Positions 17,201-23,200 are shown, counted from the first letter of the stretch. The stretch: 64,000 nucleotides of DNA from Yuukianura sp. NJ FZ-2021 (GCA_046563655.1 CM102287.1:6820001-6884000), one strand, 5' to 3'. The notes: a model not told the origin generated them from the letters alone. Numbers and translations: made by a program.

Positions 17201-20200
17201 AAGTTGAGCGTCAAGTTTTGAGGGGCACTGGGGGGTTTACTACAGGGGAGACCCTTGGGATCTTCGTCGCTTCGGAAGTAACCCGTGTTGCAGCGACATT
17301 CTGCGGAAGCAGTATATGGGGCAGTACTGTGTTCTGGACAACTAGCGCAGCGTCCATCGCCAATATCAGATTTAAAACGTCCAGGGGCACAAACTAAAAA
17401 AGGAAAGTAATACTATCAATCACAATTTCAGATGCCAGAACAATAAGTCCTAATTTTTTTGTTGAACTTTTCACTCTACCATTGCAAGTTTGTTTTGCGT
17501 GATCAGCTTCATAACCAGCCTTGCACTGACATCCGCCTGAAAGCAAGTACCACTTTCCGTCGCCTTTACAGAGATGCCTGGGTGGACTCTGTTCAACGGA
17601 GTTTGCTACACAAAAACCTAAAACAGGAAGCAAATATTCAGATTTCCAAAATCTCAACATTTTCAAATTTTCCTTAAAAAGTTTTTTCAATTCGATGTTA
17701 CTATACCTTCTGCTTGTTCGATTGAAGTAAGTTCTCTTCCAGTTGGAGTGGGTGGGAACAATGCAAAACTGGCAGTGACCTCTGGACATGAAATATAATA
17801 CACTTTGATAGCGAGAAGAGAGATGCAGGCTCCTTGATCTCGAAACGCAAAGTACACGCCCTTCTTTGTGACTGGAATACTCCGCACTTCAGTGTTGATG
17901 ATCACCTCATTATTCAGGGTAACTGCAAGAAGTATTCAAAAATTTAAGGTATTTAAACCGAATTTTATGAATTTTTAAAAAACAGTTTCAGAATCCTTAC
18001 ATCGCCCTTCGTCTGCCGCGATTCTGTCGATGAGCGTATAGCTCTCCTGTTCCCATGGCGGAGGTTCCTTGGTGGCAGCATCGAATTCGTAGTAGAGGAG
18101 GCTGAAAGTTTCCTTGCAGGAGAGTGCCGTTCCAGGGAACAAATTGCAGTCTCGCATGCTAAACTGGATTTCAACGTAGAGACGATTTGCAGGGCCTCGG
18201 TCAATGAACGGAGTCCACAACCAGTTGTTCACATTGTTATAAGCTACGTCACACACAACGTACGACCTCCAGTTGATCCCCTTGTCAAAGTTCGTAAAAC
18301 TCTCCTCAATCCACTGAAATCAGAAAAAAAAAATATAACAGTTAAAATTCAATTCCTCAAAATTGTAGAAGTTTAGAACCAAAAACATTCAAATTATATA
18401 TAGATTTAGAAACTTTTGAGTTTAAAATACTATGAAATTATACTGCAAAGTTTAAGATCCTGGGAAAGTGAAGATACAAATGTTAAGTTTCTGATTTAGA
18501 ATGGAATTAGGAAGTAAGAAAGTGGTGTTTCGGGTGAAGTGGAAGTGATTAGTTTTGTAGTTTTGGTTTAATGTGCCCCCAGGGCATTCTATCGTCCTCT
18601 CCTAATTACTTTTTCTCCTAAAACTTCTATCACTTTCTCTCCGCAATTTGTAGCTTTCTCTTTTCTCTTTACTCATCATTCCTAACACTAAAATCTAAAG
18701 AACTTATATTTCATTTCTATTAAACTTTTGGAGTGTTTAGTTTAAAGTTATGTTGTAAAGTGGTGTTGGAGTGAGGAGGTGAGACAACTCCTGTTGTTCC
18801 GAGGGAATTGTCAGCAGGCTGAGATTGTACAGATTACAACTGGCTCTTTCAAGATCACAAAGATTCCGAGCCACTAGTTGGGAGGTGGCTGGGGGCTATT
18901 CAAAAAAAGTAATCTCCCCTCAGATCTGGAGACACAAAACTGTTGAAAACAGGAAGAAAAAAGAAGAAAAACACAAAAAGTAACGCGTAAGTTTGTGAAT
19001 CTGATTCTCATTTCGTTCAGAAAAAAAAAAAACACGTATCTACTTTCACTCATTTTTGTATAACTTAATCATAGTACTTCTAAAATTTAGGAATGCTAAT
19101 GGTAGATTAGTAACCCAACAGAGGAAACAGGATTTTGATCTTTACATTTGTAAAAACATTCCAAAATTTCCATTTCCAAAACAAGTAAAATACAGAGGAA
19201 GAGGAAATGTGCATTTGAGAGTGACTTTTTAGAATTTATTTCCTTCTAAAACCCACAACATGTCCACTTCCTCGTTGAAATTTTAATTTGTATTTACTCA
19301 AGGCGTCCTAAATCAAACAAAAATGAAACAAAAGGCCCATTTCAAATATGTTTTTCAAAAAATGTTTTCTTATTTCTCATTTCCATTTCCTTCATCTTTT
19401 CTTAAGGTTTTGAGTTGTGGACGTCCACCTGAGCCAGACTTCCAGCGGCGCTGAAATCTCCATCCATTTCCATATTTACCCTGTTCAGACACAGGATCTG
19501 AGATTTATCATGTTGAGCCTTGGGCCACAATCCAAGGATCTCTGGGTTCCCTTCGTGGGGCCCTTAAATTTCCCTCTGAAACTAACGTTGAAGTAGAGTT
19601 TTAGACTGTTTGGAAAACAGAGTCCAAAGTAAAGCCTTGGAGGCATTGTTTGGCAAAAGTTGTTCAAAGATGAAGCTCCTTCTTCCAGGAAGCTGCTTGG
19701 GGAAGAGCGTGAAGGCATAATTATTAAGCTCCACTTTACACCAACTTAAAACAAATCCGATTAAAATTAATTCACAAAACTACAACCAAATCTTCTCTCG
19801 AGGCCTCTGAAACACTTCCTTCCATAACTTCACTTTCAGTTCAGCACTACGGAAGTTTCAAAATGATAAAAAATATGGAGGGATATTAGTAGCAAAACTA
19901 ATTAAACTTTCCCCCGCCAATTAAAGTTTCCCCAATTAAAAAAGTTAATTTTCGCCAATTTATTAATTGGCGTAAACTTAATTGGCGGAAAGTTAATCGG
20001 GGAAATTTTAAACGGCGAAAAGTTAATTGGGGGGAATTTAAACGGCGAAAAGTTAATTGGGGGGAATTTAAACGGCGAAAAGTTAATTGGGGAAATTTTA
20101 AACGGCGAAAAGTTAATTGGGGAAATTTTAAACGGCGAAAAGTTAATTGGGGGGAATTTAAACGGCGAAAAGTTAATCGGGGAAACTTTAAACGGCGAAA

Positions 20201-23200
20201 AGTTAATCGGAGAAACTTTAAACGGCGAGAAGTAAATTGGGGAAACTTTAATCGGCGAAAAGTTTACGTTCCCCCAATAAACTTCATTCGCCAGAAATGC
20301 CAGGTGGTGTAATGTTATGGTAGTAAAAAATGATATAGGGATACGGGCCCGAGTTCGAATCTCGCTAAGGCTGTTATTTTTTTTTTTGCTCCAATTAATT
20401 TTTAAAATACAACCATCAATTTTTTTATTGAATGCCATATTAGTAATGATAATAATAATAATAATAATCATCTCTATATATAAAATCGAGACTCTGTTAA
20501 TCTGTGTCTTTGTCCTGCTACTCCTCCGAAACTACTGTACCGATTTGGACAAATGAGGTGTCTTTTTCTTCGTGAGGTCACCCCGAAGAGCACTGGTGAT
20601 GTCGCATATTGACCCGTGACCTTGGACCCTTGACCTTGCGCGGTGACCTCACAAAATCATACCAAACACAAGCAAGTGGCATGCTATTCTAAAGCAGAGG
20701 TCAAATGGAGTTGATTTATGTATGACATATCGACCTATGACCTTTGACCTTTGACCTAGGGCAGTCACCCCATAAGAAGTATACACAAACATAGGCATGT
20801 GATATGTCATTCGAAAGCGGAGATTCAGTGGAGTAGACCTGGACCTTTGACTTATCGCTAGGGCGGCAAAATATATACTTTTAAACATAAAATATTTTAA
20901 TATTAAAAAAAATATGTATCTAAATATTTAGTAAAATGGGTACGATTTAGCGCGAAGAAAGTTTAATTTGCGTTAAATAAGGTCCGAAATTTCCATGAAT
21001 TTAGCGATTTACTCAATTACTTCGGAAGACAGAGTGTAACCTCATACTCTCTTTTAGAAAAAACCTTTACAAAAGAAGATTCGCACAAAAGAAAAAAAAA
21101 CGTCACTGTTTTTCGGAGTGAAACTTTTTGCCAAGATATCATAATAAGCCATCTAATTTTCAAGCTCTTTTCAAAAATTGGCAAAACATCATGCTAATTT
21201 CTTGATTTTTTTCAAAAATCGCCAAAACATTTTTATAATTTAAAATTTTCGTAAATATTTTTGATTTCCTTTTTTTGCTCAAATATTTTTTTAAATATTA
21301 AAATATTTTATGTTTAAAAGTATATATTTTGCCGCCCTAGCGATAAGTCAAAGGTCAAGGTCTACTCCACTGAATCTCCGCTTTCGAATGACATATCACA
21401 TGCCTATGTTTGTGTATACTTCTTATGGGGTGACTGCCCTAGGTCAAAGGTCAAAGGTCATAGGTCGATATGTCATACATAAATCAACTCCATTTGACCT
21501 CTGCTTTAGAATAGCATGCCACTTGCTTGTGTTTGGTATGATTTTGTGAGGTCACCGCGCAAGGTCAAGGGTCCAAGGTCACGGGTCAATATGCGACATC
21601 ACCAGTGCTCTTCGGGGTGACCTCACGAAGAAAAAGACACCTCATTTGTCCAAATCGGTACAGTAGTTTCGGAGGAGTAGCAGGACAAAGACACAGATTA
21701 ACAGAGTCTCGATTTTATATATAGAGATGATTATTATTATTATTATTATCATTACTAATATGGCATTCAATAAAAAAATTGATGGTTGTATTTTAAAAAT
21801 TAATTGGAGCAAAAAAAAAAAATAACAGCCTTAGCGAGATTCGAACTCGGGCCCGTATCCCTATATCATTTTTTACTACCATAACATTACACCACCTGGC
21901 ATTTCTGGCGAATGAAGTTTATTGGGGGAACGTAAACTTTTCGCCGATTAAAGTTTCCCCAATTTACTTCTCGCCGTTTAAAGTTTCTCCGATTAACTTT
22001 TCGCCGTTTAAAATTTCCCCGATTAACTTTTCGCCGTTTAAATTCCCCCAATTAACTTTTCGCCGTTTAAAATTTCCCCAATTAACTTTTCGCCGTTTAA
22101 ATTCCCCCCAATTAACTTTTCGCCGTTTAAAATTTCCCCGATTAACTTTCCGCCAATTAAGTTTACGCCAATTAATAAATTGGCGAAAATTAACTTTTTT
22201 TAATTGGGGAAACTTTAATTGGCGGGGGAAAGTTTAATTAGTTTTGCTACTAATATCCCTCCATAAAAAAACAAAAACAAACACAACAAAGTTATTTTCA
22301 GTTTTAGCTTTGCTGTTTTTACCCAGAAATTTCACAGTAATTCAACAAAACAGCTCGTTAGGCAAAAAATAATCTCATAAAAAAACAAAAATGTTATTTT
22401 CGAATTTTCTTTTTCTGAAACTATAATTATCTTGGTTTTAAAACCTCAAATTGAGGTCCTTCTCAAGTCTGTTCACAGTTGGTAACTAATTTTGTGCCTT
22501 TTTGCATATAACTTAAGTGTCCGTGACCTTGATAACCTTGTTTGACAGCTCCCAAGGGTGGTAGAAGAAGATTGTGAGGTCAGAGGTCAAGTAAAGATTC
22601 CCCCTGCCCTCTGACCCAAACATGCTAAGTCACTACACCATCCACTGCCTGCTGACTAACATCATGGCACCAGCAGTGTCTGATCTATAGAACAAGAATC
22701 TTCGTCTATGATAGGTCGAAGTTGAAAGCGATTTTTGAAAAATGTTGGAAAAGCATCTTGTGGATTGTGAATTGTAAGAGACAGGACTTAAGACATGGGC
22801 CAAAGGAGTTAAGGTTGGGTTCCTGACATTTGTTGAAGGAGTCTCTTCAAAAACCCAATCTCCAAAGGCTTTTCAACCTCTCTCTTCTGCTTCAAGAAAA
22901 AGTTGGTCTTCTTTTTTCAAAAAGACTTTTTGAAAAAAAGCACAAAAGAAATCCATTTCTGGAGGAATTAATCAGACTCACACTCTCTCTTCTACTCCTT
23001 CCGCTTCACCAACTCTCACTACCTCCTTGCCTAACTTTCACAATCGACCTCTCAAGACGCTTCCAGCTCCAGTAAGAAAGAGAGGTTCCAAAATTTACTA
23101 CAGCTTCCCAAATCCACCCAATTGGAATTTTGAGAAGGATTTCAAACAAAAATCAATTCTAAGATGATCCACTTCTCCAACCTCATTTAAATACCAAAAA

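Follow-up and report, generated by a model that had tools for sequence, protein, structure and literature searches.

How does a 2.4-kb palindrome come to lie within an intron of a developmental receptor gene? The question is raised by a 64,000-nt stretch of DNA from Yuukianura sp. NJ FZ-2021 (GCA_046563655.1 CM102287.1:6820001-6884000; hereafter the window), in which a repeat finder and a reading of positions 19700-22450 delimit an inverted repeat of 2392 nt at 19874-22265, with two mirrored arms of about 1 kb. A first-pass annotation of the window had placed an inverted repeat with two ~1-kb arms at 19874-22265, and both the repeat finder and our alignment recovered the same coordinates; it had also interpreted each arm as a mosaic whose modules stem from unrelated element classes, a description that fared less well, as set out below. 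We lean, with confidence just above even, towards another answer: that the repeat is a non-autonomous foldback-type DNA element, a copy consisting of two terminal inverted repeats (TIRs) and lacking a transposase, which was inserted in the first coding intron of a springtail Eph gene.

The inverted repeat and its host intron

The main parts of the element and the intron that contains it are the following, in window coordinates.

19874-20915, + strand: left arm (terminal inverted repeat), 1042 nt
20916-21282, no strand assigned: middle domain, 367 nt, AT-rich and non-coding, with a 41-bp repeat in 1.9 copies at 21153-21230 (Tandem Repeats Finder, TRF)
21283-22265, - strand: right arm, 983 nt, with the same domains in mirror order and its minisatellite at 21935-22175 in 8.1 copies
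18314-24677, - strand: predicted first coding intron of the Eph receptor gene, about 6.4 kb, of which the element makes up about 38% (tblastn and splice signals)

The two arms together account for 1042 + 983 of the 2392 nt, or 85% of the element, in agreement with the foldback pattern (the structural class of FB, Galileo, Tetris, TFB1 and others) in which long TIRs form most of the whole. For a base-by-base comparison, the right arm was reverse-complemented and aligned globally with the left arm (MAFFT). The ends of the inverted repeat proved to be sharp and symmetric to the base, and the arms were found to differ at only a handful of places. Two homopolymer runs differ by one base, an A-run at 19937 (6 versus 7) and a T-run at 20376 (11 versus 12). 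Three substitutions cluster at 20063-20066 inside a single minisatellite unit, and a gap of 61 nt corresponds to two such units; the remaining changes are C/T at 20186, G/T at 20841 and A/T at 20905. Across the gap-free block 20377-20915 / 21283-21821 the alignment gave 537 complementary positions of 539, whereas the repeat-finder output shows 100%. The first-pass annotation had anticipated most of this picture, including the small homopolymer differences, the minisatellite of 10 versus 8 units (10.1 versus 8.1 by TRF) and a spacer of ~370 bp, measured here as 367 nt. Its single substitution near 20841 corresponds to the G/T difference, while the changes at 20186 and 20905, both outside the repeat units, had escaped it.

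The gene around the element was identified from its protein domains and from its closest relatives. Within the 54 stop-to-stop frames of at least 100 aa that were scanned outside the element, Pfam revealed an Eph receptor gene on the minus strand, with a ligand-binding domain (17975-18319), cysteine-rich, fibronectin III and kinase domains, and a SAM domain (14207-14521). The fibronectin exon is nearest to springtail Eph proteins, namely those of Folsomia candida (74%) and Orchesella dallaii (70%), and the host is therefore a collembolan. When the F. candida Eph protein (P0001) was aligned to the window by tblastn, residues 5-55 mapped to 24824-24678 and residues 56-237 to 18313-17690, both on the minus strand. 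The gap between these exons is bounded by a ...CCAGGC/GTAAGT donor and by a T-rich (polypyrimidine) tract with a CAG acceptor before TGGATTGAGGAG. Judged from these exon matches and canonical splice signals, the element is within the first coding intron of the Eph gene, and its earlier placement in Eph pre-mRNA holds.

Domain architecture and likeness to foldback elements

Each arm comprises three domains, listed from its outer end inwards: terminal, outer (made of tandem repeats) and inner (itself internally repetitive). The features of the left arm, each of which has its mirror counterpart on the right, are these.

19874-19962, + strand: left terminal domain, about 90 nt, a unique 30-nt tip (TATGGAGGGATATTAG...) followed by reversed minisatellite-type 15-bp units
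19953-19972, no strand assigned: orientation-switch mini-hairpin CGCCAATT-TATT-AATTGGCG at the outer end of the minisatellite; mirror copy at 22166-22185
19963-20264, + strand: outer domain, 30-bp minisatellite in 10.1 copies (TRF), built from two diverged 15-bp half-units (TTAANNGGNGAAANN)
20265-20915, + strand: inner domain, 651 nt, with two substitutions and one 1-nt T-run indel relative to its mirror
20350-20387, + strand: T-arm/B-box-like hairpin CGAGTTCGAATCTCG (20350-20364), then T11 (20377-20387); 15-nt Rfam match at E 0.67-1.3
20444-20469, + strand: (TAA/ATA)n microsatellite, of equal length in both arms
20605-20854, + strand: unit of ~122 bp in ~2.3 copies, each with a run of 3-4 TGACCYN heptamers ('AGGTCA arrays')

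The terminal domain begins with its unique 30-nt tip, TATGGAGGGATATTAGTAGCAAAACTAATT, and continues with two to three minisatellite units whose orientation is opposite to that of the main array. Indeed, a motif scan placed matches at 19927 and 19950 on the minus strand and those from 19963 onwards on the plus strand, so that the motif changes strand at 19962/19963 and, in the mirror arm, at 22175/22176. The minisatellite of the right arm has the same 30-bp period (8.1 copies, 21935-22175). With up to one mismatch allowed, the element contains 38 of the window's 47 matches to the motif TTAANNGGNGAAA, the mean in shuffled sequence being 11.6. Further in, the (ATA)n tract recorded by the first-pass annotation is readable in the sequence, and the TGACCT-rich repeats that it had put at ~125 bp are likewise present: 20605-20714 and 20726-20837 are 74% identical over 112 nt, and a short third fragment follows. 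Because each ~122-bp unit carries three to four TGACCYN heptamers, AGGTCA/TGACCT is enriched ~14-fold in the element, with 17 occurrences in 2.39 kb (7.1 per kb) versus 31 in the other 61.6 kb (0.50 per kb). At 20738-20757 (mirror 21441-21460) three perfect TGACCTT-type heptamers stand in tandem, which reads as AGGTCA-A-AGGTCA-A-AGGTCA on the opposite strand; AGGTCA.AGGTCA itself was counted four times in the element and twice in the other 61.6 kb. We take this one-base spacing of AGGTCA repeats to be that of nuclear-receptor direct-repeat response elements.

These domains correspond to further foldback hallmarks. The TIRs are internally repetitive and vary in repeat number, containing a 30-bp array with a 15-bp sub-period as well as the ~122-bp inner repeats. 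The middle is short (367 nt) and its longest frame, of 76 aa, had no Pfam match; none of the 10 frames taken across the element contained a Pfam family above the curated cut-off, and the weak matches that did appear were repeat-driven. Four structural hallmarks of foldback elements thus appear to be present wholly or in part, and in our comparison the architecture seems to fit the foldback scheme point for point.

The likeness to Drosophila FB and Galileo elements proposed by the first-pass annotation is borne out for architecture, that is for long and internally repetitive inverted arms. FB elements are built on a hierarchy of 10-, 20- and 31-bp repeats and are flanked by a 9-bp target-site duplication (TSD). 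Like FB of Drosophila melanogaster, the present element has nested short tandem repeats near its termini and arms whose lengths vary with repeat number; it differs in that repeats occupy ~30% of each arm, the inner domain being mostly unique, and in that a 9-bp flanking repeat matches here in just 8 of 9 positions. A similar arrangement is described for Tetris of Drosophila virilis, where the published foldback scheme comprises a terminal domain, a tandem-repeat outer domain, an inner domain and a non-coding middle, and where the account of the element gives TIRs of up to 1,735 bp, TSDs of 8-10 bp and no copy with a transposase (PMC4079207). The domain order, the variable non-coding middle and the non-autonomous state are alike in the two elements as that account presents Tetris. 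In addition, part of the Tetris terminal domain is related to its tandem-repeat unit (PMC4079207), just as the terminal domain here holds 15/30-bp units. On the same description the Tetris repeats are of ~220 bp, versus 30 bp here, and the present host is a springtail, so that the likeness is architectural and carries no demonstrated sequence relation.

Galileo, a member of the P superfamily along with Kepler and Newton, is described as having 7-bp TSDs, TIRs of 0.3-1.2 kb that are internally repetitive, and many copies that consist of two TIRs and nothing else (PMC3573991). The present element is comparable in its long repetitive TIRs and its two-TIR form, and a 7-bp reading of its flanking repeat, TAAAAAA, is possible. 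Galileo differs in that it is classed by its transposase, none being linked to the present element; the likeness is one of architecture. For springtails, the description of the F. candida genome lists TcMar transposons among the most abundant repeats, together with 11 gene-scale palindromes formed by inverted duplication (PMC5490193), and one springtail genome paper mentions Helitrons. No report of foldback elements in springtails was found in the literature searched, where the papers that name both concern the genome of a fungus gnat. If mobile, the element would represent a foldback-type element in Collembola, a poorly studied group. The importance of such elements lies in their long inverted arms, which favour inversions and deletions and from which satellites can arise, as the accounts of Tetris and Galileo relate (PMC4079207, PMC3573991).

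Evidence for insertion and competing origins

If the element was inserted by transposition, its flanks might retain a duplicated target. The inverted repeat reaches TATGGAGGG... on the left and ...CCCTCCATA on the right, beyond which lie GATAAAAAA and AAAAAACAAAAAC, respectively. The TA that the first-pass annotation had seen at both ends is readable there and belongs to the inverted repeat itself. A longer direct repeat is present as follows.

19866-19873, no strand assigned: left flanking direct repeat ATAAAAAA, candidate target-site duplication, its last 6 bases being A6
22263-22270, no strand assigned: right copy of ATAAAAAA, its first 3 bases overlapping the end of the inverted repeat; A6 alone spans 22266-22271

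Four readings of a possible duplication can be made: TA (2 bp, with tips TGGAGGG), A6 (with symmetric tips), TAAAAAA (7 bp) and ATAAAAAA (8 bp). As a null without duplication, every window position was examined for identity between the bases upstream of it and a string made of the element's last bases followed by those downstream. Among 63,960 window positions this held at 1 for 8 bp, 17 for 7 bp and 179 for 6 bp; among the 3,932 positions of the intron minus the element the counts were 1, 1 and 19, and by our reading the single 8-bp and 7-bp intron matches are the element's own site. The A-rich flanking repeats, ambiguous in length, lend moderate support to a target-site duplication of 6-8 bp, and flanking direct repeats of this size favour insertion by transposition.

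In such a scenario, a transposase encoded elsewhere, for which the Mutator, P and hAT superfamilies are candidates, would recognise the tips together with the arrays of 15-bp subterminal motifs, excise the element and reinsert it, duplicating an A-rich target of 6-8 bp. If the insertion did duplicate this target, the empty site before insertion would read ...GATAAAAAACAAAAAC.... Recent origin, intramolecular gene conversion or the two together would account for the near-identity of the arms, and minisatellite copy number would drift through slippage, giving the 10 versus 8 units. Both transposition and a transposase partner, like any effect of the element's RNA, are things that we infer.

Several results weigh against insertion as a mobile element. 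The flanking repeat sits in A-rich DNA of low complexity, which leaves its length ambiguous between TA, A6, 7 bp and 8 bp; the 7- and 8-bp readings leave the tips unequal by 2-3 nt; and several configurations were tried before the 8-bp one, so that the nominal 1/63,960 overstates its significance. No other copy came to light in the 64-kb window, where none of 19 blastn matches (word 9, E 1e-3) and no nhmmer match fell outside the element. No transposase was present among the 54 frames of at least 100 aa outside the element, which contained only the Eph domains, NTP_transf_7 and LIM (Pfam). Three translated element frames were also compared with large protein sets, including open reading frames predicted on eukaryotic contigs, and yielded negatives that are weak as evidence: among proteins of similar length, frame 20649-20924(-) shared no words with any candidate and frame 19905-20531(-) had 87 candidates, none of them at E<=0.01.

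A few candidates from these searches were set aside. With blastn at word 7 and E 1, three unique parts of the element gave nine short AT-rich matches (E 0.029-0.57), which we took as chance. Similarly, frame 20281-20553(+) had one match at E<=0.001 against 1.84 billion representatives, P0121 (E 2.8e-06), which was judged spurious because P0121 is a 710-aa tandem-repeat protein that matched an FFF...QLIF low-complexity stretch. Genome contigs of bacteria and archaea were also scanned with two exact patterns, in case host DNA had contaminated them; the matches numbered 0 and 0, as expected.

Are the arms then assembled from captured modules, as the first-pass annotation held? In that scenario a tRNA-derived RNA polymerase III (Pol III) unit and a Helitron fragment would have been joined to the minisatellite and mirrored as a new composite family. 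We consider this improbable, neither label being supported by the tests for a tRNA and for a Helitron 3' end. For the 'tRNA-like Pol III cassette', ARAGORN called no tRNA in the window by default and none in the element at -ps or -ps80 (eight calls on the element at -ps70 with introns allowed were taken as noise), while Rfam gave no match across the whole window at gathering score and no tRNA match at E<=10 in either the 2.5-kb element or the 111 nt alone. What Rfam did return at E<=10 was at chance level: microRNA-like hairpins at the outer ends (19913-19989 and 22124-22221), which are explained by the orientation-switch mini-hairpin, and a 15-nt match to the T-loop of transfer-messenger RNA (E 0.67-1.3). 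The minimum-free-energy fold of the 77 nt at 20296-20372 shows no cloverleaf and is no better than that of shuffled sequence (z = -0.22), since 78 of 200 shuffles matched or exceeded it. The sole tRNA-like feature to survive is the 15-nt T-arm-like hairpin at 20350-20364, followed by T11/T12, and this is a point in favour of a captured Pol III unit; the T-run lies 12 nt downstream of the B-box-like CGAGTTCGAATCTCG, whose match is at chance-level E. Upstream lies the string TGGTGTAATG, which we take to resemble a tRNA D-arm/A-box, and a decayed tRNA-derived relic is possible. The 'Helitron-like end' consists of TC-TCTATATATA following an A (A/TCTCTATATATA, at ~20471), which speaks for a Helitron fragment, although two bases plus an AT-rich string are weightless alone. 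Perfect hairpins of the Helitron 3' type (stem of at least 6, at least 50% G+C, loop 3-10) numbered 0 in 20470-21300 (+) and 0 in 20900-21730 (-); with no G+C-rich hairpin in the inner domain or middle on either strand, there is no Helitron 3' end. Nor does any module recur elsewhere within the window. The arm is thus better described as the domains of one element than as a mosaic.

The main rival to a foldback transposon is a palindrome made in place: template switching or hairpin-primed repair would have produced an inverted copy of a ~1-kb intron stretch that already contained the minisatellite and other repeats, leaving a genome-unique structure that never transposed. This account, which we think unlikely yet credible enough to be taken seriously, agrees with the single copy known (from blastn and nhmmer in the window and from the lack of protein-level copies) and with arms that are almost identical, as for a young duplication. 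It also draws on the smaller minisatellite orientation switch in each arm (19953-19972 and 22166-22185), which suggests earlier strand-switch events in the same sequence. Gene-scale palindromes arising by inverted duplication are reported for F. candida in its genome description (PMC5490193), at a very different scale. Against it stand the flanking direct repeats, which are unexpected from an inverted duplication given the null counts above, the base-precise symmetry of the repeat ends, and the layout of the whole unit, which is that of known foldback transposons. Least probable of all is an assembly artefact. Spurious palindromes are a recognised problem of long-read libraries, and a foldback chimera of long reads could in principle produce one; nothing direct favours this here, and it conflicts with arms that carry substitutions, two homopolymer differences and 10.1 versus 8.1 minisatellite units, with the unique 367-nt middle, and with a contiguous intron that has canonical splice sites and correctly ordered exons. 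With arms that are not identical, a unique middle and a properly ordered intron and exons around it, the structure is real and not an obvious artefact.

Possible RNA effects and neighbouring features

In the sense of the host gene, the 2,492 nt folded as RNA gave a predicted energy of -1849.8 kcal/mol, versus -544 to -578 kcal/mol for five mononucleotide shuffles, which excludes a chance origin of the structure. In this predicted fold 986 of 1107 pairs join arm to arm and the longest perfect helix measures 453 bp, so that the ~1 kb of double-stranded RNA foreseen by the first-pass annotation appears as a predicted near-perfect duplex of about that length. A foldback element in this position would be transcribed inside Eph pre-mRNA and fold into this ~1-kb duplex, which could feed small-RNA or editing pathways or leave with the spliced intron. 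Some long intronic inverted repeats yield hairpin RNAs, as at the hairpin RNA (hpRNA) loci of Drosophila. The present repeat would resemble such intronic loci in its predicted near-perfect ~1-kb duplex within a Pol II transcript, and a 1-kb hairpin within the pre-mRNA of a developmental receptor could plausibly give rise to small RNAs. We only infer what the ~1-kb duplex in the intron might do to the host, and likewise any regulatory role for the runs of AGGTCA heptamers. It would be a long shot to go further and see here the founding copy of an undescribed springtail foldback family, whose inner TIR domain would spread arrays of AGGTCA half-sites one base apart and whose insertions would carry a mirrored hormone-responsive enhancer, a Pol III-type box with terminator and a ~1-kb source of hairpin RNA into genes such as Eph.

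Elsewhere in the window, two other genes were recognised by Pfam: exons of an NTP_transf_7 nucleotidyltransferase-family protein at 8778-9637 (+) and exons of a LIM-domain protein at 59280-60738 (+). GC skew on the plus strand is positive across the first 10 kb of the window and negative over 22001-54000 (about -0.1 to -0.25 per 2-kb bin), a stretch of ~30 kb that starts just upstream of Eph. A second, unrelated hairpin element of ~290 bp lies at 11855-12142, between the nucleotidyltransferase-family gene and the 3' end of Eph; its 130-nt arms are 95% complementary and 28 nt apart, and in appearance it resembles a miniature inverted-repeat transposable element (MITE) or a small foldback. Shorter inverted repeats at 3357-3511 and 2452-2648 have arms of 57-59 nt that are 86% and 75% complementary and are separated by 41 and 79 nt, respectively. 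Finally, a C-rich tandem repeat of ~40 bp (consensus ATACCCCCATAACACGAGGAGGAATTTGAAACCCCCCCTT) occupies 37421-37689 in 3.5-5 copies.

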